Below, piece by piece: positions 17,895 to 48,525 of a stretch of 57,517 nucleotides of DNA (position 1 is the first letter of the stretch; each line of letters starts with the position of its first letter). Below the pieces are notes generated by a model. That model was not told the DNA's origin. It saw nothing but the letters and a program-made list of their open reading frames with translations, and ran no database searches. Source of the DNA: a virus (taxonomy: Duplodnaviria; Heunggongvirae; Uroviricota; Caudoviricetes); IMG/VR virus record IMGVR_UViG_3300029305_001878, positions 128,001 to 185,517 of that record. The stretch is one strand, 5' to 3'. The translations under genes and the position numbers were made by a program.

Positions 17895-17984
17895 AAGGCA
17901 GAATTGATATTACAGCAAATCTTTTGGTTTCATATTTGGGTCAATCCCCGGATACGAGGTTCAAGTCCTTGATTTTCTGCCTTG
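17895..17984 (+). ncRNA. ACAGCAA-stem element copy 3 (contains a T-arm)
   Basis: AAGGCAGAA/TTCTGCCTT stem, ACAGCAA at 17912-17918, internal CGAGG-TTCAAGT-CCTTG. Confidence 0.6.
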
Positions 17985-18008
17985 AACAAGAAAATTTAAT
18001 AGGTGTTT

Positions 18009-18133
18009 TAGACGGCGTTACTGCAATTTTATTACTAATAGAATTGTATTAAAAGAAAAAAATTTTATTGTGTTTAAATAAAATTTTAGGTAAGTCGGCC
18101 GACTAATAAAGTTTTTAAAAAGAAGCCGTCTAG
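18009..18133 (+). ncRNA. ACAGCAA-stem element copy 4 (ACTGCAA variant)
   Basis: TAGACGGC/GCCGTCTA stem with a long AU-rich insert. Confidence 0.55.
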
Positions 18134-18337
18134 TAAGACTTCCAACAGGAGAACCAAGGACTATTGTATGCGGGCCTTGGCTGGAAGAAAAGCCTATCCT
18201 TTCTTATATAGTTAAGTATATAAGGAAACAAAAACTATGTCCTGCTATCGAGAGTTTTTACATCCTGACCCAAAGAATGGTTTGTTTTTTACTCGATAGT
18301 TTTTTTATATATACAATTGAATAAAGGAGGTATTTAA

Positions 18338-18403
18338 ATGATTATCGGAGATATCGATGATTTTATTTTTGCAGATGAAGAAGCATATGTCAGTGAGAGA
18401 TAA
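18338..18403 (+). CDS. small acidic peptide (21 aa)
   Basis: Strong AAGGAGG RBS; MIIGDIDDFIFADEEAYVSER. Confidence 0.45.
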   Translation: MIIGDIDDFIFADEEAYVSER

Positions 18404-18418
18404 TTGCTTTTTCATCAA

Positions 18419-18503
18419 TTATCTTAATGCGCCGAGTCGTTAAAGCGATTCGCTGGTCCCAAGCCCAGAGTTCGGGTTAACCGAAAACCGCAGAGGGAGA
18501 TAA
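18419..18503 (+). ncRNA. twister self-cleaving ribozyme (P1 type)
   Basis: P1 TTATCT/AGATAA, TAA, P2 TGC/GCA, P3 CGAGTCG/CGATTCG, P4 CTGG-TCCCAAGC-CCAG, P5 TTCGG/CCGAA, GAGGG; matches the twister core layout. Confidence 0.75.
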
Positions 18504-18506
18504 TAT

Positions 18507-18598
18507 GGAGAGGTACCCAAGGGGTCATAAGGGGGCGGTCTACTAAACCGCTAGCCGGAACATCCCGGGCGTGGGTTCGAATCCCACCCTCTCCGCCA
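18507..18598 (+). tRNA. trnS: tRNA-Ser(ACU), A34 anticodon
   Basis: GCGGT/ACCGC stem, CTACTAA loop, long variable arm, G73, CCA. Confidence 0.85.
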
Positions 18599-18601
18599 TA
18601 T

Positions 18602-18676
18602 GGGGTTGTAGTTTAAAGGTAAAGCGGAGGACTTATAATCCTTTGTTGCTTGGTTCAAGTCCAGCCAGCCCTACCA
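18602..18676 (+). tRNA. trnI: tRNA-Ile(UAU)
   Basis: GAGGA/TCCTT stem, CTTATAA loop, A73, CCA. Confidence 0.85.
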
Positions 18677-18682
18677 TCCTAT

Positions 18683-18754
18683 AAGACGCACACAGCAATT
18701 TTATATATATTCATTCTTAACCTTTTAAATTAACGATATGATTATGGCGTCTTG
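18683..18754 (+). ncRNA. ACAGCAA-stem element copy 5
   Basis: AAGACGC-ACACAGCAA...GCGTCTTG. Confidence 0.65.
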
Positions 18755-18761
18755 ATTTTAT

Positions 18762-18837
18762 GTTCCAGTAGCATAATGGATAGTGCATCGGATTTCTAAT
18801 CCGAGTTGTCAGGGTTCGAGTCCTTGCTGGAACGCCA
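18762..18837 (+). tRNA. trnR: tRNA-Arg(UCU)
   Basis: GTTCCAG/CTGGAAC acceptor stem, TTTCTAA loop, CCA. Confidence 0.9.
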
Positions 18838-18860: not shown

Positions 18861-19100
18861 ATGAAATTTACTAACGCAAAGTAGATTCAAGATTTTCTCG
18901 AAGCAGTTAATCAATGTAATAGTGAAGTATATTTAATCAGTCCAGAAGGAGATAGATTTAATTTAAAATCTTCTTTATCTCAATATGTTGCTATTGGAGC
19001 ATTATTAGGTGAACGTGGCGATTATTTAGAATTATTCTGCAATGACAGAGTTGATGAATCTTACTTAATGAAATTTTTATATGAACACCCAGAGGTTTAA
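18861..19100 (+). CDS. small HPr-fold-like protein (1 in-frame TAG)
   Basis: AAGGAG RBS; TAG at 18882; FLEAVNQCNSEVYLISPEGDRFNLKSSLSQY resembles small clostridial HPr-like proteins. Confidence 0.6.
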
Positions 19101-19244
19101 TTAATTATCTTAATTAATTAAACCTTTTTTCTATTTTATTTGACTTTTCTCTTTTTTTATTGTATAATTTAATTGGGTATAATTGTGTAATAATAAAAAT
19201 TTTATCTTGAAGATATATAGAATTATAAATGAAGAGGTGAGCAA

Positions 19245-19955
19245 ATGGCTTGTATAGATGATGCTTGCGCTGCAAGTTGCACTGGCGATTGTTTTACTAC
19301 TTGTACTGGCGGATGTAGTGGTGGATGTTATACTGGATGTACAGGATGCGGAGGTAACTGTACTGGTACTTGTGAATCTGATTGCGCAAAAGGATGTTCT
19401 TCTACTTGTAGTCCTGCAGGTGCTTGTTATTCAAACTGTGCGGTAGACTGTCAAGGTACTTGTAAGGGTACTTGTGATGGAAGTTGTACTGGCGGCTGTG
19501 ATGGTAGTTGTTCAGGTGATTGTTGGGGTACTTGTACTGGCACTTGTAGTGGAGGTTGTAAAGGCTCTTGTACTGGCTGTTCTGGTACTTGTAAGAGTAC
19601 TTGCGCGACTGGGTGCGCAGTAGGTTGTTCTACGACCGCAAATATAGAAACGTTTAATCAATTAGACGCATTAAGTATTTCAATAAGTGACTTAATGTAT
19701 GCAAGTGAAATAGAAATTATTGAAAAATCTGCATTAAATGAATTAAAGAGACGTAGTATTACTACTAATAATACTGATTTAACTGTTAATGCAGGGGATG
19801 AAATTCTTCGAACTATATTAGAGTCTATCTATAATAAGTTAATTGATTTGAATTATAGTCCAAATGCTAATGATAATAATCAAGATGCTACAAAAGCAGA
19901 TGAAATAAACAGATATATTACTTTTATAAAAACAAAATATCAAGAGGAAGTTTAA
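19245..19955 (+). CDS. CXXX-repeat Cys-rich protein, putative radical SAM target 1
   Basis: About 30 Cys, mostly every 4th residue among small residues, followed by a ~100-aa non-Cys domain. Confidence 0.85.
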   Translation: MACIDDACAASCTGDCFTTCTGGCSGGCYTGCTGCGGNCTGTCESDCAKGCSSTCSPAGACYSNCAVDCQGTCKGTCDGSCTGGCDGSCSGDCWGTCTGTCSGGCKGSCTGCSGTCKSTCATGCAVGCSTTANIETFNQLDALSISISDLMYASEIEIIEKSALNELKRRSITTNNTDLTVNAGDEILRTILESIYNKLIDLNYSPNANDNNQDATKADEINRYITFIKTKYQEEV

Positions 19956-19958
19956 TTA

Positions 19959-21242
19959 ATGAAAAAAGGTCAAGAAAGTTATAGTGAATTTATTGGAAGA
20001 ATTTATCCTGATTCTCAAATGGTAAAATCAGTTACATTACAGGTAACTGAAGATTGTAATTTATGTTGTACTTATTGTTATTAGATTAACAAAAAGAAAA
20101 ATTCTATGTCATATGAAACTGCTATAAAGTTTATTGATTATATTTTAAAAGGTGATAGTGATTATTTAAACTTTGAAAATAGCGGTGGTTTTGTTTTAGA
20201 CTTCATTGGTGGAGAACCTTTGTTGGAAGTTGATTTAATTTGTGATGTTTCTAAATATTTAATCGAGAAAATGATTAGAGAAAATCATCCTTGGTTGCAT
20301 AAATTTAGAATTTTAGTAGGCTCAAACGGCACTTTATATTTTAATGAAAAATTCCAAAAATTATTAGAAACATATGGTAATTGGATAGTATATGATGTAA
20401 CCATTGACGGCAATAAAGAATTGCACGATAGTTGTAGAGTATTTCCAGATGGCAGCGGCAGTTATGATTTAGCAGTTGCGGCTATGAGAGATTATAGTCA
20501 CGGTTTTAAGGATAGATTATCTTCTAAAATAACTTTAGCACCTGAAAATTTACCTCTTATGAATGAGGCATTGCGGCATTTTATTTCTCTTGGCTTTACT
20601 GATATTAATGCAAACTGCGTTTTTGAAGATGTTTGGTCTATTAAAGATGCTAAAATCTTTTATCAGCAATTAAAAGAATTTGCTGATTATGTATTAGATA
20701 ATGATTTAGATGAAAAAATTTATTGTTCTTTATTTAGAGAAGAGGCTTTTAGTCCTTATACTGGTAATAATGATAACTGGTGTGGTGGCACGGGTAAAAT
20801 GCTTGCTATGAACCATACTGGTAATTTATATCCTTGTTTAAGATATATGGAATCTTCTCTTGGTGATAGTGTAGAACCTATTATTATAGGTCATATTGAT
20901 ACTGGTATTGGTTCTAATGAAAAAGAACAAGAATGGATAAAAGGATTACAAGCAATTACTTATACAAGTCAATCTCCCGAAGAATGTTTAAATTGTCCAA
21001 TTGCAGATGGATGCGCTTGGTGCTCTGCTTATAATTATCAAGTTTTTGGTGAAATAAATAAAAGAGCAACTTTTATTTGTATAATGCATAAAGCAAGAGC
21101 ATTAGGCAATTATTATTATTGGAATAAATATTATAAGAAATATAATAAAGAAGAAAGAAAAAAAGTTTATATCCCTAAAGAATGGGCTTTAGAAATTATT
21201 TCTGAAGATGAATTTAATTATTTAATTGAATTATCAAAATAA
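19959..21242 (+). CDS. radical SAM/SPASM peptide maturase, CXXX-repeat target family (TIGR04115-like; 1 in-frame TAG)
   Basis: TEDCNLCCTYCY* (CxxxCxxC, TAG at 20082), DFIGGEPLL, WCGGTGKML..YPCLRY, CLNCPIADGCAWC..NY..RATFICIMHKAR. Confidence 0.9.
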
Positions 21243-21258
21243 TAATTAAAAAAGGAGG

Positions 21259-22026
21259 TTGGAAAATATGGCAAACGGTAATAATTGTATAGATGATGTT
21301 TGTACTACCAGTTGTGTTGGTGATTGTTTTACTACTTGTACTGGTGCATGCAGTAGTGGTAATGTATGTAAAGGCGGATGTACTGGTGGATGTTATAAAA
21401 CTTGTACTGGTGGATGCGGTGGCGGATGCGGTAATGATTGCACAGATACTTGTAATGATACTTGTAATACAACTTGTGTGAAAACTTGTGCTGATGATTG
21501 TACTGGTGGATGCAAAGAAACTTGTACTGGCGGATGTGATAATACTTGTAGTAGTTGTTCTTATGGTTGTGCTTCTGATTGTTACGCTTATTGTGTGGAC
21601 TATTGTAATAATAGTTGTAGTGGAGGATGTAAAGAAGGTTGTAGAACAGTTTGTTCAAATGCTTGTAAAGATGATTGTGGAGCCGCTTGTAAATCAAGTA
21701 ATCAAGAAACCTTATTAGTAACACCAGTTACTAATTTAAGAAATAACTTAAAAATTGGTGCAATAGTTCACGCAGATGAATTAGATTTAATAGAACAAGC
21801 CCTTATATTTGAATTAGAACGCAGAAACTTAACTTCAACTACAGGAGATACGCAATTAAGTAGAGATACTGCGGTTTTAGCAAATATAATCAAATCACTT
21901 CACGAAAAAAGTGAAAAAGCATCCTATAACAAAGATAGTAACCAATTCTTAATAGATGATGATGAATTAGTAGGCTATATTGACTATGTTATAACATTAT
22001 TTGGTCAATATGTACAACAATCTTAA
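21259..22026 (+). CDS. CXXX-repeat Cys-rich protein, putative radical SAM target 2
   Basis: Same architecture as 19245..19955, with a shared N-terminus CIDDxCxxSCxGDCFTTCTG. Confidence 0.85.
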   Translation: MENMANGNNCIDDVCTTSCVGDCFTTCTGACSSGNVCKGGCTGGCYKTCTGGCGGGCGNDCTDTCNDTCNTTCVKTCADDCTGGCKETCTGGCDNTCSSCSYGCASDCYAYCVDYCNNSCSGGCKEGCRTVCSNACKDDCGAACKSSNQETLLVTPVTNLRNNLKIGAIVHADELDLIEQALIFELERRNLTSTTGDTQLSRDTAVLANIIKSLHEKSEKASYNKDSNQFLIDDDELVGYIDYVITLFGQYVQQS

Positions 22027-22159
22027 TTTGATTTTTTTTAAAAAAAATGATATAATATATTTACAAAGTTAAGGAAAAGAAAAATTAATTTTTCTTTTCC
22101 TTAACAGAAGAAAATTTGATTTTTTAAAAAAAATATGATATAATATATTTACAAAGTTA

Positions 22160-22230: not shown

Positions 22231-22304
22231 AGAGGATGTAGTGTAATGGCAACACGCCACATTTGGGATGTGGAATCGCGGTTCAAATCCGACATCTTCT
22301 ACCA
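22231..22304 (+). tRNA. trnP: tRNA-Pro(UGG)
   Basis: CCACA/TGTGG stem, TTTGGGA loop, CCA; irregular T stem. Confidence 0.8.
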
Positions 22305-22307
22305 TAT

Positions 22308-22384
22308 GCGGGATTGGCGCAGCAGGTAGCGCATCTGACTTACATTCAGGAGGCTCATAGGTTCAAATCCTATATCCCGCACCA
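22308..22384 (+). tRNA. trnV: tRNA-Val(UAC)
   Basis: GCGGGAT/ATCCCGC acceptor stem, CTTACAT loop, CCA. Confidence 0.9.
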
Positions 22385-22407
22385 AAGTTTCTTCATAAAT
22401 CGCTCCA

Positions 22408-22523
22408 AAGACACATACAGCAAATTTTGTTTAGTAAAACAATGTGTTATAGGTTCGAGTCCTATCTTGTGAGTATTTTGCGAGTCGACCAATTGGTAGG
22501 TCAATTGTCTAAAATGTGTCTTG
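22408..22523 (+). ncRNA. ACAGCAA-stem element copy 7, enclosing a circularly permuted tRNA-like module
   Basis: Order inside the AAGACAC/GTGTCTT stem: ACAAT, T arm ATAGG-TTCGAGT-CCTAT, CTTGTGA, linker, TTGCGAG, D arm GACC/GGTC, ATTGT. Confidence 0.7.
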
Positions 22524-22551
22524 TAATTTTCCCTTCGTTCAAATTAAATAT

Positions 22552-22627
22552 TGGGGATTGGTGTAATTGGTAGTCACATTTGACTTTGACTCAAACAGCG
22601 TAGGTTCGAATCCTGCATCCCCAGCCA
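22552..22627 (+). tRNA. trnQ: tRNA-Gln(UUG)
   Basis: TGGGGAT/ATCCCCA acceptor stem, CTTTGAC loop, G73, CCA. Confidence 0.9.
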
Positions 22628-22729
22628 CGCCAGTGAAGAGTGAACAAATGTAGGCACACTGGGGTATCAATAAAAGGCGGTATGTGTGGTTAAAGAGGGC
22701 AGACCTTAATGCAACCTCATTTTTAATAT

Positions 22730-22817
22730 GCCGCTGTGGTGGAACAGGTAGACACCACAGACTTAAAATCTGTTGCTCTTTTTGGGCGTGCCGGTTCGAG
22801 TCCGGCCAGCGGCACCA
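22730..22817 (+). tRNA. trnL: tRNA-Leu(UAA)
   Basis: ACAGA/TCTGT stem, CTTAAAA loop, long variable arm, CCA. Confidence 0.9.
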
Positions 22818-22943
22818 TATGATTAAAATCAACTAACATTTTGTTAGTTGATTTTTTTTATTTGTTTGGACCGACCGGCAACAAACGCAAGAATCGAAAA
22901 CCCAAATCAAAAAATCGATTTAGAAATTTTAAGGAGGATTTAT

Positions 22944-23513
22944 ATGTCATATCAATTAACGCGTAATACTCTATCTCGATATCTAAATACTGATACATTG
23001 AAAATCCAAGAGTGTAAAGAAATAGAAAATTTTCAACCTTTGTTACAAAAGAACTATGGAGAAGATTATGATTGCTCATTGGTTTCAATTACTATGATAA
23101 TTAATAACTATCGAAAAGAATTAGTTCCTTTAGATATTTATAAAAAAGTAGAAAAGATTGCTAAAAATTATTTTTATAATGGAAAAGTATTTGGTACTTT
23201 ACCTTTCTTTATAAAAAGCATTTTTGATAGAACTTTAAAAGAATATAAAATATATAAAACCACAAAAGCAAAATATTTAAAAGATTGCGGTTTTACCTAT
23301 AATTTAATAAAGGAAAACATAAAAGCGCAAAAGCCTATGATTTTATCTATGTGGAATGATGGCCGCAACTATTATAAGAATCATAGTGTAGTAATTATTG
23401 GATATGCTATAATAAATAATAAAAAGTTTTTAATAGTATTTGATAATTGGAGTCGTGAAAAGGCTTATATTGATTACTCAAAATTAAATAAAATGAGTTG
23501 CTTAAACTATTAA
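22944..23513 (+). CDS. papain-like (C39-like) cysteine peptidase
   Basis: AAGGAGG RBS before ATG 22944; DCSLVSITM (Cys), NHSVVIIGY (His), VFDNW (Asp). Confidence 0.65.
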   Translation: MSYQLTRNTLSRYLNTDTLKIQECKEIENFQPLLQKNYGEDYDCSLVSITMIINNYRKELVPLDIYKKVEKIAKNYFYNGKVFGTLPFFIKSIFDRTLKEYKIYKTTKAKYLKDCGFTYNLIKENIKAQKPMILSMWNDGRNYYKNHSVVIIGYAIINNKKFLIVFDNWSREKAYIDYSKLNKMSCLNY

Positions 23514-23603: not shown

Positions 23604-23972
23604 ATGGCCGTAACTATATAGTTAAAGCGTGGTACTGCCGAGGCTTGGAAAAGAGTTAATCCTATTCTTGCTGTTGGTGAACCTGGTTTTGAAAAAGATA
23701 CTAATCGCTTAAAAATTGGTGATGGTATTAATAATTGGGTTAATTTACCTTATCAAGATTAGAGTAACGAAAATGTATTTAATACCAATACTCGTTATGA
23801 ATTTCCAAGTATAGGTAAAGAAAATGTTATTTATAAAGCCTCCCAAGAAGCAAAATTATATCAATGGAATCCTACCTTAAATATCTATGAGTCTTTAATT
23901 GGTTCAGGAGATGGTGGCAGTCTCGATGATATAGATTTAATAAATGGAGGTAACGCATATGGCAACTCTTAA
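23604..23972 (+). CDS. tail-fibre/adhesin N-terminal motif protein (2 in-frame TAG)
   Basis: TI*LKRGTAEAW..NPILAVGEPGFEKDTNRLKIGDG; TAGs at 23619 and 23760. Confidence 0.8.
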
Positions 23973-25235: not shown

Positions 25236-27134
25236 ATGGCTTTAACATTTGGTAAAATCAATCGTGCGGCGAGTTTTAACCCTACAACCGCGTTCCCACT
25301 TGATGCGCGCAGTTATTTTGAAAGTTATGATTTAGCCGTTGCTGCTGCCTTAACTGCCAAAGAGGCAGGCGATACTACTACTGTTCACTATTATGGTGAA
25401 ACTTTATGTGTCGTTGAAAATGGCGCTGCTAAACTTTATATCATTCAGCCAGAAGGCAAATTAGAGCCAGTAGGCAGTGATGTTAAAGTTAGCGTAAATG
25501 AAAATGCTTTTACTTTTACTGATGGTAAAATTGATTTACTTGGCTTTAGTGAAGCAGTCGCGGGCGCGCAATTAGTAAAAACTGAAGACGGCAAAATCTC
25601 TTGGGTAAAACCTGATGCTACCACTGTAGAAGGTTTACAAACTGCGGTTAGTACTTTAGAAACCAATGTTTCTAATTTAACTACTCTTGTAAATAATAAA
25701 GCAGATTCTTCTACTGTATACACCAAGACCGAAGTTGACAATAGTTTAACTGCTATTACTAATACTTTAGATAATAAAGCAAATGCGGCTGATGTATATA
25801 GTAAGAGCGAAGTTGATGGTTTAGTTTCTCCCAAGGCTAATGCTGCTGATGTATATACTAAATCTGAAATTGACGCTTTAGTTAATCCTAAAGCCAATAG
25901 CAGTGATGTTTATACTAAAGCCGAGGCTGATAGCGCGATTGCCGCAGCGGTTGCAGGTGCCGAACATCTAAAGAGACAAATCGTTGACCAAGCCGATATT
26001 GACATTTATCTTGCTGGACCTACTCTGGCTGAAAAGAATGTCATTTATATGGTTAAGACTGGTGCATCCAGTGATGCTTATAAAGAATATATGCGATTTG
26101 ACGCAGAAGATGGCACTGTAAGTTTTGAACAAATAGGCGATACTTCTGTTGATTTAAGCAATTATGTTACTTCTGATGCTTTGAATAGTAAGGCAGACGT
26201 TAGTGTTACTGATAATCTGGCTGCTTTAATTCAGGCAAATACTAATAATATCGCTTTAAAGGCTAATCAATCTGATTTAGAGACTTTATCTACTTCTGTT
26301 GGAACTAATACCAATGAAATTGCTGCTTTAAAAGAAGCAATGAATGATAAAGCCGCAAAGAGTGATTTAGAGAGTTTACAAGAAATTGTTAATTCCAAAG
26401 CCGCACAAAGCGATTTAGATAATTTAAGCAGTACTGTTTCTGCTAATGGCGAACAAATTGCTTTATTAGAAACTAATAAGGCTGATAAGAGTGATTTAGA
26501 ATCTTTACAAGAAGTTGTTAATTCTAAAGCCTCTCAAAGTGATTTAAATGCTTTAGCAAAGATTGTTTCTGATAATTCCACGGCTATTGCAACAAAGGCT
26601 AATCAATCTGATTTAACTGCTTTAAGCGGCGTTGTTGATAATAAGGTTGATAAAGTTTATAGTGAAGTCGATGGAGAACAAGTTGCTTGGACTTTATTAA
26701 GTCCTACTAATGCTAAAAAGTTAGAGTAGTTAAGTATTGATGAAGATGGTAGTGTTGGTATCTCTGGTACTGTTGCTGCCGATAAGGTCGAAGGTCTTGC
26801 TGACTGGATTACAAGTAAGCGTGACACCGTTCCTGGTTTATTCTCAACTACTTATCAATCTAAACTTGATGGTATTGAAGAAGGCGCTCAAGTTAATGTA
26901 ATTGAAGCAATTAAACTTGCGGGCGCTGATGAAAATCTCGCTATTGCTAACAAGACTGTTGAAATTCCTTATGCAACTGATAGTCTTGCTGGTATTGTTA
27001 AAACTTCTCAAGAAATTACTTTAAATAGTGATAAACAATTAGAAGTTTTAAGTTTGAACGTGGATAAGTTAGTACAGACTGGTGATTTACTGCTGAATTG
27101 CGGTGGAGCCACTGGTTTTACTTATTCTGAATAA
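25236..27134 (+). CDS. putative tail fibre with tandem KA-x-x-x-DVYTK and KAxQSDL repeats (1 in-frame TAG)
   Basis: Read-through at 26727 extends the frame to TAA at 27132; C-terminus contains KLDGIEEGAQVN. Confidence 0.8.
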
Positions 27135-29230: not shown

Positions 29231-32200
29231 ATGGGAAAGGCTTTAAATACCATTATTAAATTACGTGCTGATGCTTCTCATAATTGGATTGCCGCGAACC
29301 CCATTCTACAAGCAGGCGAACCTGGTGTAGAAATCGATACTTTAAAATTAAAAATCGGTAATGGTGTTTCAACTTGGCAAAATTTACCATATACAACTGG
29401 CGAAGCAGAAATCGTAGGCAATAGTGGTATGATAATAGTTGATACTCTGCCTGAAGTTGGTAGTCCTTCAGCCCTCTATAAAGTTGAACATAGTTAGAAG
29501 ATTTATTTTTGGAATACTTTAACTAACGAATTTAACTTATTAGATTTCTCTGAAACTCCCACCTTCGAAGATACTAATACAGATAACATTATTGTATTAA
29601 ATAGTCTCTCTGATTTACCAGAAGAAGGAGTAGATAATTATCTCTACAAAGTATTAGAAAACCAAAAGATTTACTTATGGGATTCTAGTAAGAAAGAATT
29701 TACATCTTTAAATAATGAAGAGATAGTTATACCAGAGTTTGAAGATACTAATACTGATAATATAGTAGTAGCATCTACTTTTAATGATTTTCCTGCTGAA
29801 GGTCAAGAAAACTATTTATATAAAGCACAAGATGAATAGAAATTTTATTTCTATAATCCAAGTCTTGGTGTTTATGATTATCTATTTACAACACCCGAGT
29901 TTGAAGACACAAATACTGACAATATAAAAATCGTAGACACTTTACCAGAAGTAGGAGAAGAAAATATTTTATATAAATTATCTTCTACTCAATCCTTCTA
30001 TTTTTGGAATAATTTAACAAATTCTTTTGAACCTTTAATTACAGTTACTGAAGATATTATTCCAGAAGTCAAAGGTGGCATTGAAGTCGTTGATACGATT
30101 GAAAACTTGCCGGCCACAGGTTCTTCTGATATGTTATATAAAGTATTAGAAGATGAAAAAGTTTATACTTGGAATGCTTCAACTAATGAATATGCTCAAG
30201 TAAGCGGTTCAACAAGTGCGGGCGAAGGCAAAAATAATATAATTGTTGTTGAGAAATATGCCGATTTACCTGAAATAGGTGAAGCAGATGTATTATATAA
30301 GGTCGCCGCAGACCAATTATTCTATACTTATAATACAATAACCAATGCTTATCAGCAAATGGGTCAAGGCGGTGGTGTAGCAACTGAAGGTTACACTATC
30401 ACTCTACAAAATACCATCGACCGCATTTTCGCTGCTATCGAGGGCGATCCAATCACTATAGGCTTTAGATATTCATCTGTTGATGCTACTGGATTTGCCG
30501 ATGGTCCTGGTATTGGTACTTTAATAGTTAACAATGTAAAAAAGGCTACTGTCGCAATTCCTCAAAAAGTTCAAACTTTAGATATTACTAAATATTTAAG
30601 TTTGGGTGAAAATAATGTTGAATTAACAGTTGAAAATAGTGAATCAAATTCTAAAACATTGGCTTTCTCTATTGAAGTAGTAAACTTATATTTAACTACT
30701 AATGTTAAAGATATGGATACTTATTTCAGTGAAACTGCAATTCCATTTACAATTACCGGTCCCGGCACTAAACTTATGCATTATATCATCGACGATGAAG
30801 AGATTGCTAGTGAGGAAGTTACAAGCACAACTCAATTAGCACATAGTTATAGAGTTCCTATGCAAGAGGCGGGCGCTCATATATTAAAAATCTATGCTGA
30901 ACGTGAAGTTAATAATATGACTATTACAAGTAATACATTAGTTATTGGTATGATGTTTGTAACTGATGAAATGGTTGATACTCATATTTTATCAAACTTC
31001 CAATAGAAGACAGGAGCACAAGGTGAAATTATTACCATACCTTATATGGTATATAACCCATTCCTTGAAACTGCTGATGTTATTTTAACTATTTATAATG
31101 AAGATGGTAGCGTTTATTTTACTAAAGAAATTACTGTTGATTAGACTGTGCAGAACTGGGTTACTCAAGATTATCCTGCTGGAAAAGTAACTTTTGAAAT
31201 TCAAGCACATTCTGATTCTGGTACTGATGCAGTAAAATAGTTTGTCATTGATATTGAACCTTCAGTTTTCGATCTAGAAATTTCTAGAGATAGTTTAACT
31301 CTTGAATTTAGTGCGGCCGGCCGTTCCAATAGTGAACGTAATCCCGAGTCTTGGTCTTATGGTGACTACGTTGGCGAATTCGAGCGTTTTGCTTGGTCTG
31401 GCGCAGATGGATGGGTTGAATCCGACGCGGGAGAGACTGTTTTAAGATTTTTGCCCAAGAACAAATTAACAATTCCATTCTATCCATTCGCTACCGATAA
31501 GCGCAATACTGGCTATACCATTGAATTAGAATTAGAAACTCGTGACGTTGCAGACTATGATGCAGTTGTAGTTTCTTGTATGGATGAAAATGGTATTGGT
31601 TTTGAAATTAAATCTCAATCTGTTGTCTTTAAAACTGAACTTTCTGAATTAGATATGATGTTTAAAGAAGATGAAAGAGTTAGAATTACAATTGTAGTTG
31701 AACCTTCCACTTTAAATAGATTTATCTATATGTTCATTAATGGTATTATGTGCGGTTTAACGCAATATACCTCAAATGACAATTTTAAACAAGCAAACCC
31801 CAAACCTATTGTAATAGGTTCTGAAAAGTCTGGTATTGACTTATATAAACTTCGTTTCTATGAAAGAAACTTTACTTACATTGAACAATTAAATAACTAT
31901 ATCTGTGACCGCTCTACCAATGCAGAAAGATTTGAATTAAAAGAGCGCAATGATATTTATGATATTTCAGGCAACTTAACAATTGGCTCTCTACCTCCTG
32001 AAATTCCTTATCTAGTTATGCAATGTGAAGAATTACCTCAATTCAAAGGCGATAAAAAGAAATCAAAGAGTATGTACTTTGTTGACCAATTGCGCCCCGA
32101 GCGTTGTTTCTCTGCAAAGGGTTGTCAATTCGACGTTCAAGGTACTTCTTCTGCTGGCTACCCTATTAAAAACTTTAAAATAGCCTTTAAAGAAGGTATT

Positions 32201-32998
32201 ATCTTACCCGATGGAACTTCTGCAGACGGTTATGATATTTTTGAAGGTGGCATTTTAGCAGAAACATTCTGTTTAAAAGCCGACTTTGCTTCATCTGAAC
32301 AAGCCAATAATGTTATGTTAGTTGACTATTATGATGAAATAGTTCGTGATTATTTCTTAACTCCTGCCCAAGAGGAAGATGAAAGAGTTAGAACTGGCGT
32401 GCGCGGCACTCCTATCGTTGTCTTCTGGGAAAATACTGAAACTGGTGAAATCAAATTCCAAGGTCAGTATAATATGAACGATGATAAGAGTAATGAAATT
32501 GTATTCGGTTTTGATAGAACTAAATATCCTAACTTGGAATGCTGGGAATTCTGTAACAATACTTCTTCTCGTGTATTATTCCAAAGAAGTGAATATGAAG
32601 AAACTACCACTGATAAAGATGGTAATACTGTTCCTGCGTGGACCGCAGATTTTGAGGCTCGATTCCCCGATTTAGATGACCCATATCGTGATTACACTCG
32701 ATTCAAGCGAATGACTGACTGGGTTGTTTCTACAGATAGACGTCAAGCAACCGATAATGAATTACCTGAACCTATCACATATGCAGATGTTGAATATACT
32801 AAAGATACTGCAGAATATCGTTTAGCAAAGTTTAAAGCAGAATTTGAAAATTATTTCTGTAAAAACCCAATGATTTTCTATTATGTTTTCACTGAAACTT
32901 TCTTAATGATTGACAACCGCGCAAAGAATATGTTCTTAACTTCTTTTGATGGAGAACATTGGTTCCCAATTCCTTATGACTTTGATACTGCGATTGGT
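29231..32998 (+). CDS. exon 1 of a ~2120-aa virion-associated protein (CotH-kinase-like core)
   Basis: ORF-track pieces 29231, 30107 and 31451 share one frame interrupted only by TAG; ends PYDFDTAIG at the intron boundary. Confidence 0.8.
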
Positions 32999-34046
32999 AT
33001 TAATATTAATGCCTGTTAAACCTTTTCCGTTTCATCAACGGGGTTTATGAATTAAAATTCATAGGCTAACGGGGAAACCTGACCGCATAATGGCGAAGGC
33101 AATCCCGTGGGAAATTATTTAAACTATTTAAAAAAAATAAAGAAAGGAGGATAAAAATGATTGGAATTATTTATAAAGTAACAAATAAAATAAATAATAA
33201 AATATATATAGGTTAGAGTATAAATACTTTAAACCGAAGACGTACAAATCATTACTCTTCAGCAAGAAATCATAATAATAATTCAATATTTCATAAAGCA
33301 TTAATGAAATATTCTAAAGATGATTTCACTTGGGAGATTGTAGAAACAATTTCTAATAATAATATAGAGTTATTATAGAAAGAATTAAATGAGAAAGAAT
33401 GCTATTTTATAAAATTATATGAATCTAATAATTTAAATAAAGGATATAATATGACCGCTGGTGGCGAAAGTTTTCAAGAACAAGCACAAAATTTTTGGGA
33501 TGATCCAAATCGAAGTGATAGTTGGAGAAAAGAATTAAGTAGCCGAATGACAAAATATTGGTCTGATGAATCCCATATAAAGCATTAGAGTGAGCAAATG
33601 AATAAATTTTATAAAACAAAAGAAGGACAAGAAAAAGCCAAACAACATAGTAATTTTATGAATGATTATTATAATGGTGTTAACGCAAGAAAAAATAAGG
33701 CTAAAACTTCTCATTATTTTATAAAAGCAATTTCTCCAAATCAAGAAGAGTTAATTTTTATTTCATCTAAAGAGCCTGATTTATATTTTAATAGAAAAAT
33801 AAATTTAAGGGCTAGGCTACATCAAGTTGGAGACATATGGATTCCAACAACTAGATGTCCTCATTTATATGGATGGAAATTTGAAGCAATAGAAAAATAT
33901 GAAATAGTTTAAATAAAAACCTGTAACGACTATCTCCGTATCGGGAGAGTAGGGGTGCTATTGATACGCACTTCGAAATGGGTTTTGTAGATTTTAAAAA
34001 TCTATTAAGATATAGTCTGTCCCATTAGAAATAATGGATTTAGATG
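32999..34046 (+). mobile_element. group I intron carrying a homing endonuclease
   Basis: P1 formed by exon GGU with intron ...AUUAAUGCC (U-G splice pair); core elements TAACGGGGAAACC, GCAATCCCGTG, GTAACGACTA, AAGATATAGTCT; terminal G at 34046; splicing restores DTAIG-INNEGKLVF in frame. Confidence 0.85.
33157..33912 (+). CDS. intron-encoded GIY-YIG homing endonuclease (2 in-frame TAG)
   Basis: AGGAGG RBS; MIGIIYKVTN...KIYIG*S, ELNEKECYFIK..GYNMTAGG; TAGs at 33214 and 33376. Confidence 0.85.
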
Positions 34047-36641
34047 ATTAATAATGAAGGAAAACTTGTCTTCGACTATGATTTAGAAGACTATGACCAA
34101 GTTGATGGTGATGATGTATTTAATGGACAATAGAGTACGCTTTGGATTAACGTAAGAGATGCTTTCGGTAATGATATTCGTAAGATGTATCAAGATTTGC
34201 GCTAGAGTGATAAATTCTCTTTTGAAACTATTAATGCAAAAATGACTGCTCACCAAGAAACTTGTTGGCCAGAAGCAATCTGGAATACTGATGCTAATAT
34301 AAAATATATTCAACCCTTCTTTACTACTGGTATTAACTACTTTGAAATGTGCCAAGGCAATAAAAAGGCTCAACGTGAATGGTGGTTATTTAATGCATTT
34401 AAATATCGCGATTCTAAATATTATGCGGGCGACGCAGTTGATACATTCGCATTCTTTAGAGCATATGATAAGGGCAATGTTACTGTAACTCCTTATCAGC
34501 ACTTATGGCCAAGAGTAGAATATACTCGTAGTTATCCTTATACTGTAAGAAGTAAACGCAATGTTCCTAATGTTATGATTAATAAAATGGATAACGTCCA
34601 AGATACTGAAATCTGGATTGACTCTATTGATAGAATTGTTAGTTTGGGCGATATGAGTGCGCTAATGACTGACACTGTTGACTTTGCAAAAGCCGCAAAA
34701 TTACAAGAAGTTATTTTAGGTAATCCTACTGAAGGATATGCAAACACACACTTATCTGAATTAAGTTTAGGTACTAATAGATTATTAACATATTTAAATG
34801 TTGAAAATTGTACAAATCTATCAAAGGCAATCAGTGTTGAGAGTTGCGCCAACCTTGAAGTCGTTAAAGCGAAAGGTTCAGCGCTTCCCGCGATTGACTT
34901 CCCTATTGGAGGACATTTAAAAGAATTGTATCTTCCCGATACATTCTCTAACTTAACCTTGCGCAATCAGCATATGATTGAAGTATTTGATTTAAGCACT
35001 TATGAAAACTTAACTTCTATGTGGATAGATGATACTCCTGGATTACCAATAGAAGAGATTTTATTAAATTCTCCAAAATTAAATCGTGTAAGATTAGTTA
35101 ATTTAACTTGGCAGGTAAGTAATGAAGATAATTTAAAAACTATTTTCAATAAATTAAAAACTTGCGCTGGCCTCGATGCTAATGGTAAGAATGTAGATAA
35201 AGCAGTTGTAACTGGTTATATTGAAATCAATTCTATCTCTGACGATTTCTTGGAAGAATTAAATGAATATTTCCCTGAACTGATTGTTATCGTTGATGGT
35301 AAAACAAGATTTTTCTTGCGCTATGTTAACTGGAATAATGAATTATTATACAAATATGCTATTTCTCAAGGTAGTAATGCTATTGACCCTGTACAAAATG
35401 GATTAATTGAAACTCCTATTAAAGAAGGTAGTGAAGATACTCGTTATAGTTACACCGGATGGAGTAGTTTACCCACTAATATCCAAGGTCCTCAAAATAT
35501 GGTTGCTTTATATGCAACTGAATTTAGAATACAATTCCTTGATGGAGATAATAATGTAGTTAATACTCAATGGATTATTGCCGGCGAAAGCGCAATAGAT
35601 CCAGTAGAGAACGGATTAATTAACATCCCAGTAAAATCTTCTGATGTACAATATAATTATGTATATGCTCATTGGAATGAAACATTTACTGAAATTGTAA
35701 GTCCTATGAATGTTACACCCTATTTCACTGCATTCTTGCGCGATTACCCTGTATATTTCTATAATGGTGATGAAAAATTACAAGAATCTCGAGTATATTA
35801 TGGTAATTTCGCTGTGTATGAAGGCGAAGAAAGTGAAATTAAGAAAAAAATTGGCGGAGTACCTTCTGATTATTATGAATTCGCTTCTTGGTCTCCCTCT
35901 TTAAGTGAACCTGTTACTGGTACTACTTATTTCTATGCTCAATATGTATTTGACGGATATATTGAAGATAGTTGGGAAACTATTATAACCAATGTAAGTA
36001 CTGGTAATTCTGACGCTTATGGTTTTGGCGGTAAGAAGAAGATAAATTTAATCTATACCAATTTAGGACAAACATATACACAAGATGTTGAGTTTGAAAT
36101 TGTAGATAAAAACCACGATATTTTAGAAAATATTGACCCAAGTTATAATAATGGTGCTGAAAAAGCGGGTTTAACTTTCCGTTGTGAATTACCTTTAAAT
36201 AGAACTATTAATAATGGTCCAAAGACAGTAGGTACTTCTTCTGGATTGAACATTGGTGGTTGGGAAATTTGCGACGTTCGTACTTGGTTAAATGATGAAT
36301 TCTTTGAATGTTTACCTGATATTTTAATAAAAAATATTAAATCTGTTGAAAAGATAAGTGATTTAGGTTATCAAGAAAAAGGATTAAAAACTACATATGA
36401 TAAGATCTTTTTACCTTCTTTAGAAGAATTAAATATTAAGAATAGTAATTTTACTGTATTAGGACAAGGCACTCCTTATGTTTTATTCTCTGATAATGCA
36501 AGTAGAAAATCTGATATTATGTATTGGACTCGTTCTACATATCCAATGACCCACATCTGGTGCGCTATTGACTTGAATGGCTATGCGTCTTATAGTGGCG
36601 GCGGCAATAAATCTAAAATTATATTCTTCTTCTGTATCTAA
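34047..36641 (+). CDS. exon 2 of the large virion-associated protein (LRR-like region, beta repeats, C-terminal DUF6273-like domain)
   Basis: In frame with the 34242 ORF after 2 TAGs; LTYLNVENCTNL and LKELYLP repeats; GGWEICDVRTWLN...DKIFLPSLEEL...YWTRS. Confidence 0.8.
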
Positions 36642-48450: not shown

Positions 48451-48525
48451 TGGGGAGTAGCATAGCGGCAAATGCTCTAGTCTCTAAAACTAGCGAAGTG
48501 GGGTCGGCACCCACCTCCCCCGCCA
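48451..48525 (+). tRNA. amber suppressor tRNA (CUA), Gln-like body
   Basis: CTAGT/ACTAG stem with CTCTAAA loop; begins TGGGG like tRNA-Gln; G73; CCA; atypical T loop GTCGGCA. Confidence 0.85.

Follow-up and report, generated by a model that had tools for sequence, protein, structure and literature searches.

A phage cassette that pairs a radical SAM/SPASM maturase with CXXX-repeat proteins and its possible link to the host-recognition apparatus

Introduction

The known substrates of radical SAM/SPASM maturases are small secreted peptides and a single enzyme subunit, QhpC. The locus examined here places an enzyme of this type between two long Cys-rich proteins in a 185-kb phage genome, and raises the question of what a virus would do with such a set of genes: release a modified peptide, bind metals, act on the infected cell, or build a covalently modified part of its own particle. 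We analyzed the whole 57,517-nucleotide stretch of this genome, hereafter the window, together with related viral and bacterial loci. Positions refer to the window unless genome coordinates are indicated.

Organization of the cassette

Three tightly packed genes, preceded by one promoter-like site, form the core of the locus (cassette 1):

19094 to 19132, plus strand: AT-rich hairpin with 14-bp arms followed by a T run, read from the sequence and not called by a G+C-based scan
19140 to 19168, plus strand: promoter-like site TTGACT-17-TATAAT, a consensus match only (11/12 positions)
19245 to 19955, plus strand: target A, a CXXX-repeat protein of 236 aa (TIGR04114, 23.1 bits; phrog_6085, E 2e-8)
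19959 to 21242, plus strand: maturase 1, a radical SAM/SPASM protein of 427 aa with TAG read as Gln (TIGR04115, 436.2 bits; phrog_1802, E 1.6e-57)
21268 to 22026, plus strand: target B, a CXXX-repeat protein of 252 aa and paralogue of A (TIGR04114, 29.7 bits)

The target genes flank the maturase gene at distances of 3 nt (A) and 25 nt (B). For target B, the start ATG at 21268 is likelier than the TTG at 21259, because a GGAGG lies 13 nt upstream of the ATG and only 4 nt before the TTG. A preliminary description of this DNA, made from its letters alone, had placed the three genes at these positions, which ORFs, HMMs and Cys counts bore out. It had also named a promoter at 19140; this is indeed the best promoter-like match between 18800 and 22400, but such sites are no more frequent in the region than in shuffled sequence (21 versus 19.8). 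The hairpin just upstream looks like the terminator of the preceding unit.

Cassette 1 is embedded in a tRNA array, outside the fibre operon, and has a promoter-like site and a hairpin of its own. Tail-fibre-like genes begin 2 kb downstream, with fibre-like N-termini encoded at 23944, 27164 and 29231. A blastn search of the cassette and fibre genes against GenBank phages gave no match. The gene set originally listed needs correcting in two respects: a stand-alone gene for a C39-like peptidase (Peptidase_C39_2) lies 0.8 kb 3' of cassette 1, and the genome carries a second maturase and target cassette, described below. The earlier statement that neither a transporter nor an RRE gene is in view survives in part, given that a scan of the ORFs near both cassettes turned up no exporter; the absence of an RRE holds for the window only, and two genes for an accessory protein lie in other parts of the genome.

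Cysteine ladders of the two targets

Targets A and B each consist of a Cys ladder of about 130 residues followed by a conserved domain predicted as four helices:

19251 to 19628, plus strand: Cys ladder of target A, residues 3-128 (Cys-gap count)
19659 to 19952, plus strand: predicted C-terminal four-helix domain of target A, with an invariant ExxRR (AF2, profile search, hhalign)
21286 to 21690, plus strand: Cys ladder of target B, residues 7-141 (Cys-gap count)
21730 to 22023, plus strand: predicted C-terminal four-helix domain of target B (C-domain HMM, E 5e-24, with this domain itself one row of the C-domain alignment)

The regularity of the ladders is striking. Target A contains 32 Cys, and 27 of its 31 Cys-Cys intervals equal 4 (binomial tail 9e-23); similarly, target B contains 34 Cys with 30 of 33 such intervals (2e-26), the null being random placement of Cys at equal density. 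Cys makes up a quarter of the ladder residues, and Gly, Thr and Ser lie in between. Both proteins show the tandem CXXX periodicity of TIGR04114 and score above its 20-bit cut-off, and their sole PHROGs match is phrog_6085, which has no function annotated. Over their whole length they share 35% identity (E 2e-37), an alignment that includes the C-terminal 100 or so residues with ELKRR in one and ELERR in the other, and the N-terminal motif CIDDxCxxSCxGDCFTTCTG is common to both, with 54 of 66 nt identical there. As read from the sequence, neither has an N-terminal leader or a signal sequence, the ladders beginning at residues 3 and 7. The initial account had given most of this picture, namely about 30 Cys mostly at every fourth residue, the shared start, the missing leader and the related C-terminal domain, and each element held up, as did its family assignment once TIGR04115 and TIGR04114 were both found above their cut-offs. 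For target A, the ESM Atlas offers a poor model (pLDDT 0.45) with meaningless neighbours.

Maturase 1 and its amber codon

Maturase 1 belongs to TIGR04115 by a wide margin: it scores 436.2 bits where the cut-off is 350, with an E of 1.2e-130 and an alignment that spans positions 2-359 of the 359-position model. When the genome was searched, the score was 435.2 bits. The cluster motif CX3CX2C is present as CNLCCTYC at residues 33-40, and seven SPASM Cys occupy positions 275, 293, 343, 346, 352, 355 and 374, with the spacing CX13GX4C at 275-293, CX2CX5CX2C at 343-355, and the additional C374. These radical SAM and SPASM motif residues are invariant among 14 homologues. Two further features bear on its expression:

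20082 to 20084, plus strand: in-frame TAG at codon 42 of maturase 1, directly after the cluster motif (CYQ), where homologues have an invariant Gln
48451 to 48525, plus strand: suppressor tRNA with anticodon CTA, tRNA-CUA (ARAGORN)

The single TAG of the gene aligns with Gln in all 14 maturases compared and, together with the tRNA-CUA, upholds the Gln reading proposed at the outset. The tRNA-CUA and the phage tRNA-Gln(UUG) have the same acceptor stem and G73. Moreover, TAG is present in 81 of the 159 large ORFs, and a suppressor tRNA combined with a TAG at a conserved Gln is the pattern of TAG-to-Gln recoding. Without suppression, translation would end in a 41-aa stub; from the sequence, maturase 1 is predicted to be producible only if the phage tRNA-CUA reads TAG as Gln. 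We also considered whether the TAG-free genes of A and B mark early expression and rejected this, since they contain only 4 and 7 Gln codons and the absence of TAG is not significant.

A predicted helical domain at either end of the ladder

The AF2 model of the C-terminal domain of A comprises four helices (pLDDT 79.7, pTM 0.74), which answers the call for a structure prediction made in the preliminary description. A word-based protein search with this domain returned nothing, and its relatives were found only by exhaustive HMM search, in which the C-domain profile detected 32 clusters among 1.84 billion representative proteins. Comparison of the profile by hhalign with the domain found at the N-terminus of most related targets in phages gave 90.9% and E 1.2e-6, which indicates that the same helical domain, as judged by profiles, sits N-terminal to the ladder in other phages. 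An HMM of the N-terminal domains alone matched neither A nor B, and the link is made only by profile-profile comparison.

In fold searches with the helical domain, no hit in the PDB, BFVD or AFDB reached E 1e-3, and nothing significant was found among solved structures for either this domain or the accessory protein, the Foldseek E being 0.29 at best. The single VIA score, Z 8.1 to a designed helical assembly, falls in a range that the tool calls common for unmatched models. Neither the helical domain nor the accessory protein nor the 84-aa ORF that precedes maturase 2 is named by Pfam, NCBIfam or PHROGs.

The helical domain and the accessory protein co-occur in 56 of 80 viral and 46 of 80 bacterial loci. 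In 23 viral loci, maturase and accessory protein are present and the helical domain is not detectable, and some ladder proteins are likewise without it; the domain is therefore not obligatory in cis.

A second cassette and a small accessory protein

The second cassette of the same genome comprises maturase 2, which scores 344.4 bits with TIGR04115, just below the 350 cut-off, and a target of 430 aa. It precedes an endolysin gene by 2.4 kb. Cassette 2 and its relative L074 adjoin genes for SPFH and PhoH-like proteins, not fibre genes.

Cassette 1 has no accessory gene of its own. However, a profile built from the ORF directly 5' of the maturase in related loci identified a small accessory protein encoded twice elsewhere, at genome coordinates 18481-18768 (E 1e-18) and at about 26.1 kb (roughly 26091-26381; E 3e-7). 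The protein is present in 79 of 80 related viral loci, and the family is predicted to adopt a small beta-alpha-alpha-beta-beta fold. Fold searches returned only generic helical hairpins from the PDB, and uncharacterised "phage protein" relatives plus one possible fusion to a SPASM protein from AFDB. Complex prediction of the accessory protein with the helical domain yielded an ipSAE of 0.00, a "no answer" that bears neither way on binding. The curated accessory model TIGR04116 (cut-off 50 bits) had no candidate in the 185-kb genome even at E 10 and none among the small ORFs of relatives; TIGR04119 (CXXX_matur) likewise had none in the genome at E 10.

Relatives and their genomic neighbourhoods

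Viral contigs with relatives of the cassette number at least 171, and at least 562 species genomes, chiefly from Clostridia, carry one as well. Neglectibacter timonensis SN17, Desnuesiella massiliensis mt10, Eubacterium pyruvativorans i6 and Brevibacillus sp. SYSU BS000544 are candidate cultured lysogens with a related cassette. A CXXX protein adjoins the maturase in 77 of 80 viral and 70 of 80 bacterial loci, and tail, baseplate or lysis genes are the neighbours in those relatives whose surroundings were read. For instance, four bacterial loci of the C-domain type (L133, L141, L149 and L150) have baseplate and fibre genes just upstream, and the L010 and L013 cassettes are surrounded by fibre genes or followed by lysis genes.

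The targets themselves vary in size and composition. One relative of 834 aa combines a ladder with two ALK/LTK glycine-rich domains, L061 encodes a ladder-domain-ladder-beta-rich protein of 968 aa, and ladder cores reach 145 Cys. A distant clade of the enzyme, in L151 and L154, adjoins peptides of 64-79 aa with 10-11 Cys. The adjacent ladder ORFs of L001- and L022-type loci were considered as one recoded gene, and this was rejected, since the ORFs end in TAA or TGA-TGA and an RBS comes after each of these stops.

Proposed function and alternative explanations

We propose that the locus is a phage CXXX-repeat maturation system whose cross-linked ladder proteins stay with the tail-fibre and host-recognition apparatus, a reading to which we give a rough probability of 0.55. 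In the anoxic cytoplasm of the host, the maturase would use 5'-deoxyadenosyl radical chemistry to cross-link the ladder Cys covalently, probably with the help of an accessory protein supplied in trans. The most likely products would be Cys-to-carbon thioethers, since the closest characterised relatives of the enzyme, namely PapB, the SCIFF maturase and QhpD, all form such bonds. The helical domain could serve as a docking handle for the maturation machinery or as an attachment piece of the finished protein. Mature A and B would belong to the tail-fibre and host-recognition apparatus, as redox-proof components or attachments, and would not be exported peptides.

Gene content and neighbourhoods suggest that the cassette in phages probably modifies a protein of the virus particle rather than yielding a secreted peptide. 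The preliminary description had preferred a modified phage protein over a secreted bacteriocin, and the relatives in prophage baseplate or tail-fibre modules or before lysis genes, the fusions, and the fibre-like genes 2 kb 3' of cassette 1 all point the same way. A more specific version, in which a thioether-stapled rod or cap sits on the host-recognition apparatus of phages infecting strictly anaerobic gut Clostridia and the ExxRR domain is a portable N- or C-terminal handle between ladder and enzyme, is offered tentatively, as a possibility that we would sooner doubt than defend.

Modified A and B might instead work inside the host during infection or at the cell envelope, serving for example host take-over, superinfection exclusion or counter-defence. 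Cassette 1 is self-contained and moron-like, with its own promoter-like site in the tRNA array, the SPFH and PhoH-like genes beside cassette 2 and L074 would suit such a role, and A and B lack TAG where half of the large ORFs contain it, although this difference is not significant. Yet the maturase itself requires the suppressor tRNA, and the many independent relatives in baseplate or fibre modules, or fused to fibre-type domains, argue for the particle; we regard a role outside the virion as unlikely. A ladder with Gly, Thr and Ser between its Cys could also chelate metals, as a metallothionein-like thiolate array that loads or stores Zn, Fe or Fe-S, with an enzyme that does not cross-link or that receives its clusters or sulfur from the ladder. 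This reading seems to us distinctly unlikely: strict four-residue spacing over at least 30 repeats and near-universal pairing with a SPASM maturase form an enzyme-substrate pattern, the nearest characterised enzymes all convert Cys thiols to thioethers, and metal binding would not need a dedicated accessory protein.

The remaining explanation is a classical RiPP, with the helical domain as a follower or leader that is cut off, for example by the C39-like peptidase, and a Cys-rich core freed at lysis as an antimicrobial or signal. It draws on the enzyme family, which is of the RiPP maturase type, on the short Cys-rich peptides beside the distant-clade enzymes in L151 and L154, and on the Peptidase_C39_2 gene near cassette 1; in 165 related loci, however, no equivalent of that gene lies within 6 kb of the cassette. 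The cores would, moreover, span 126-135 residues here and contain far more Cys in some relatives, the ORFs scanned around both cassettes included no exporter, and some relatives fuse the ladder to fibre-type domains of 450-600 aa. We consider a released peptide quite improbable, the least likely of the readings weighed here, and retain the virion-associated maturation system as the preferred one.

Implications

If the virion-associated reading is true, RiPP-type chemistry would operate on a virion structural protein and provide covalent reinforcement where disulfides cannot survive. The action of such an enzyme on proteins of 200-970 aa, encoded by a widespread phage cassette, would represent a new class of post-translational modification in virions, and would explain, in a form open to testing, how phages of anaerobes keep their extracellular parts stable without disulfides. 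In this 185-kb recoded gut-type phage, an amber codon at the position of an invariant Gln would place a further gate on the maturase. With two-part targets, made of a ladder and a portable helical domain, and a trans-acting helper, the system would be simple to reconstitute in a heterologous host. Some such prophage cassettes are probably counted as bacterial RiPP clusters by genome-mining tools and, if the proposal is true, some "ranthipeptide" clusters of Clostridia may be prophage tail parts.

Comparison with known systems

The best characterised match of maturase 1 is PapB (NF047865), with 172.1 bits over the whole rSAM-SPASM core against a cut-off of 340. According to PMC12373016 and to general background on freyrasin, PapB makes Cys thioethers in a substrate with repeated Cys-X3 motifs. 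Scores were lower with the SCIFF maturase (TIGR03974, 111 bits, cut-off 425, E 7e-32) and QhpD (TIGR03906, 100 bits, cut-off 453, E 1e-28). Both are rSAM/SPASM enzymes that join Cys to a side-chain carbon, and the QhpD substrate is a protein subunit, not a released peptide; their substrates and genomic contexts are unlike those described here. The PapB substrate PapA is a short peptide of leader and core that bears six CX3D motifs, whereas the present targets have no N-terminal leader and about 30 CX3C units, most of which lack Asp at the position that PapB uses as acceptor. Because all three scores lie far below the respective cut-offs, the cross-link chemistry is proposed by analogy. A classical exported RiPP is defined by a short precursor with an N-terminal leader, a leader peptidase and an exporter; the present precursors are leaderless and 236 and 252 aa long, the scanned neighbours include no exporter, and the nearby C39-like peptidase is not conserved with the cassette.

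The closest counterpart is the CXXX-repeat radical SAM system of NCBIfam/TIGRFAMs, defined by comparative genomics only and comprising a TIGR04115 maturase, TIGR04114 or TIGR04117 targets and a TIGR04116 accessory protein. In common with it, the maturase and both targets score above cut-offs, the genes are adjacent and the motifs are complete. In contrast, the present system is phage-borne and has an amber codon in the maturase, and its targets are proteins of 236-430 aa with two or three domains rather than short peptides. Their four-helix domain is recognised by no NCBIfam or Pfam model and, while TIGR04116 and TIGR04119 are unmatched, our own profile finds a small accessory family. Literature searches on TIGR04115, on CXXX or Cys-rich repeats with radical SAM, and on phages with thioethers or ranthipeptides found no study. 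The cassette is thus a phage variant of a curated CXXX-repeat system, catalogued but with no study found, and what is new is the homology between N- and C-terminal helical domains indicated by profile comparison, together with the accessory genes predicted to be encoded in trans.

Organization of the CXXX-repeat cassette

Cassette 1 consists of three co-directional genes located after a promoter-like site and an AT-rich hairpin. Its elements, together with a nearby peptidase gene, are listed below in window coordinates.

19094-19132: AT-rich hairpin with T run
19140-19168: promoter-like site, 11/12 matches, the best of the region
19245-19955: target A, CXXX-repeat protein
19959-21242: maturase 1, radical SAM/SPASM gene
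21268-22026: target B, CXXX-repeat protein
22848-23513: stand-alone Peptidase_C39_2 gene (PF13529; score 33.5 bits, cut-off 24)

The preliminary description of two targets with cysteines mostly at every fourth residue (a "ladder"), a common N-terminal block and related C-terminal parts was borne out on every point. Target A contains 32 cysteines, with 27 of 31 gaps exactly four, and target B contains 34, with 30 of 33; under a binomial null of random placement at equal cysteine density, the tails are 9e-23 and 2e-26, respectively. A and B align at 35% identity (E = 2e-37), share the block CIDDxCxxSCxGDCFTTCTG (54/66 nt identical) and carry a related C-terminal part of about 100 residues. Both pass TIGR04114 and also match phrog_6085.

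Ten tRNA genes lie upstream of the cassette (15525-18837) and four downstream (22231-22817), so that it resembles a self-contained unit inserted into a tRNA array. The downstream block is preceded by two TTGATT-17-TATAAT boxes with a TG extension (22028-22056 and 22116-22144), which enclose a perfect 18+18-nt palindrome (22069-22104).

The maturase and its amber codon

With TAG read as Gln, maturase 1 comprises 427 residues and reaches 436 bits against the TIGR04115 cut-off of 350, in agreement with the type first proposed for it, and 197 bits on phrog_1802. Neither the CX3CX2C motif nor any of the seven SPASM cysteines is missing; as judged from sequence, an intact TIGR04115 enzyme is flanked by two TIGR04114 targets. 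The closest characterized families are PapB (172 bits), the SCIFF maturase (111) and QhpD (100). A maximum-likelihood tree built from 87 maturases places maturase 1 inside a large clade of Clostridia phages and prophages, where it groups weakly (support 86/76) with the enzyme of L074, a locus of another TAG-recoded phage. A separate group of loci with C-terminal domains adjoins a clade neighbored by short classical CXXX peptides, with neither the helical domain nor the accessory protein described below. The well-supported branches require the C-terminal architecture label to have changed at least twice.

The 185,517-base IMG/VR virus record is complete by CheckV; the window covers its bases 128001-185517 and has a G+C content of about 34%. 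Many of the window's long ORFs stay open only when TAG codes for an amino acid, and TAG is present in 81 of the 159 large ORFs of the whole genome. Of the window's 19 tRNA genes, the one at 48451-48525 has the anticodon CTA. ARAGORN labels this suppressor 'Pyl'. The sole TAG of maturase 1 is codon 42, directly after the cluster motif, in a column that is invariantly Gln in an alignment of 14 maturases, and the tRNA-CUA has the same acceptor stem and G73 as the phage tRNA-Gln(UUG) (22552-22627). On these two grounds, the predicted reading of TAG as Gln in this phage is well supported. If the suppressor were absent, translation would stop after 41 residues, and an internal start at 20106 gives a predicted protein without the cluster motif; by its coding sequence, production of maturase 1 depends on the suppressor tRNA. 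Targets A and B contain no TAG codons, which is uninformative because they have only 4 and 7 Gln codons and the TAG share in this genome region is about 10%.

A predicted helical domain, probably shared by both ends of the ladder

A word-based search with the C-terminal domain found no relatives; its profile, run against 1.84 billion representative proteins, recovered 32 clusters, most of them a CXXX ladder followed by the domain and several of them stand-alone proteins of about 100 residues. Glu40, Arg43 and Arg44 (ExxRR) are invariant. AlphaFold2, given the domain alignment, predicts four helices (pLDDT 79.7, pTM 0.74), for which Foldseek returned nothing significant in PDB, BFVD or AFDB.

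The arrangement differs in most related phage loci: there, some 105 residues with the pattern …ELxxIKxKVKxEMxRR… form a domain at the start of the ladder protein, and a conserved junction, SSCRGxCTGLC, comes next. An HMM of this N-terminal domain alone matched neither A nor B. Because profile-profile comparison aligns the N- and C-terminal domains (probability 90.9%, E = 1.2e-6, 88 columns), we read them as a single family that can probably precede or follow the ladder; locus L061 has it mid-protein (968 aa). The domain may serve as a handle by which enzyme and helper dock, or else as a piece used for attachment. An obligatory handle in cis is argued against by 23 viral loci with enzyme and helper in which a detectable helical domain is absent, and by ladder genes that lack it.

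Many standard-code phages (L001, L022, L041, L052) split the system over two genes, a short one with the helical domain and 11-18 cysteines and a separate, domain-less one with 44-64; the first ends in TAA or TGA-TGA, and the second has an RBS of its own.

A second cassette and the accessory protein

The same genome contains a second cassette, whose main elements are given in genome coordinates (G000:C1).

~18.4-29.1 kb: cassette 2 (locus L088, 4482-15106)
18481-18768: accessory copy 1 (profile E = 1e-18)
~23.0-24.3 kb: maturase 2 (434 aa, five TAGs, 344 bits)
~26.1 kb: accessory copy 2 (profile E = 3e-7)

Accessory copy 1 is followed by an SPFH-like gene, an ORF of 349 aa that matches no family, an 84-aa ORF and maturase 2, which forms a long branch of uncertain position in the tree. 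Next come a 430-aa target, in which the same helical domain (E = 2e-10) comes after a shorter ladder, accessory copy 2, a PhoH-like gene, an endolysin and a 116-aa ORF whose hydrophobic stretches suggest a possible holin; the cassette lies 2.4 kb ahead of the endolysin gene. It is syntenic with that of L074 (192.8-kb contig), where the order is SPFH-like gene, C-domain target, accessory, maturase and PhoH-like gene.

The accessory protein corresponds to a small ORF (95-120 residues) that 79 of the 80 related viral loci have directly 5' of the maturase. Across the genome, its profile detects two copies, none of them in cassette 1; the 84-aa ORF just 5' of maturase 2 occupies the accessory position and matches only loosely. 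At the sequence level, the system includes a shared helical domain and helper genes encoded in trans. The curated TIGR04116 and TIGR04119 models detected nothing in the genome. The accessory protein has a high-confidence predicted fold, beta-alpha-alpha-beta-beta (pLDDT 94), and its AFDB relatives are uncharacterized "phage proteins." A weak match to the fold lies at residues 441-535 of a 662-aa "SPASM domain-containing protein" (AFDB cluster A0A2E2AVK5; TM 0.55, probability 0.99, E = 0.028), which may be a natural helper-enzyme fusion.

Distribution and genomic context

At least 171 IMG/VR contigs encode a maturase about 50% identical, with CXXX proteins beside it in 77 of the 80 contigs retrieved. 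A species-level genome collection gave at least 562 confirmed matches, mostly in Clostridia (Oscillospiraceae, Lachnospiraceae and Clostridiaceae). The cassette lies 3' of baseplate and tail-fiber genes in the four C-domain-type bacterial loci read (L133, L141, L149 and L150), between two fiber genes in L010, and between fiber and lysis genes in L013. In one phage group, the ladder is fused to two ALK/LTK-type glycine-rich domains (809-834 aa).

In the window, genes starting at 23944, 27164 and 29231 have tail-fiber or Mtd-type N-termini. Two large ORFs at 29231-36641 (1262 and 865 aa) both match phrog_14959; the first has a tail-fiber N-terminus, and a GIY-YIG homing-endonuclease ORF (33157-33912) separates them, which fits a split fiber-like gene. 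The ORF at 40894-42171 matches a Hoc-like head-decoration family (phrog_10993, E = 1e-23).

Within a distant maturase clade, L151 and L154 (Clostridium spp.) show the system in its classical form: next to the maturase, they encode CXXX peptides of 64-79 aa with 10-11 cysteines. In the Bacteroidota loci of this clade, L155-L168, ladder ORFs are either about 130-215 aa long or absent. A detectable helical domain is missing from all of these distant-clade loci, and accessory matches are confined to L160, L162 and L166 and are marginal (E = 2e-4 to 5e-4).

Proposed function

SPASM maturases act on adjacent Cys-rich substrates, and the nearest characterized relatives, PapB, the SCIFF maturase and QhpD, all make Cys thioethers. 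For these reasons, we infer that maturase 1 would cross-link the ladder cysteines in the cytoplasm, and the genomic context suggests that the mature targets would become part of the particle's host-recognition apparatus.

The C39-like peptidase gene, 0.8 kb 3' of target B behind four tRNAs, could instead suggest that A and B are exported RiPPs. This is unlikely because of target size, because relatives carry fusions and because the ORFs scanned around both cassettes include no exporter; moreover, the peptidase is not conserved with the cassette, as none of 165 related loci has a C39-like homologue within 6 kb. A metal-binding role for the targets is a less probable alternative. For this copy, the targets may also act inside the cell, outside the virion, a less probable reading to which the self-contained position of cassette 1 within the tRNA array lends some weight. 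Cross-linked targets that serve in host recognition remain our preferred reading.

Relation to known systems

The gene set is already curated in NCBIfam and PHROGs, and our literature search found no experimental or descriptive paper on it. We class the cassette as a variant of this known but uncharacterized system, to which it adds the amber codon at the maturase's invariant Gln, a second cassette in the same phage genome, helper genes encoded in trans to cassette 1, and a probable common family for the helical domains at the N- and C-termini.
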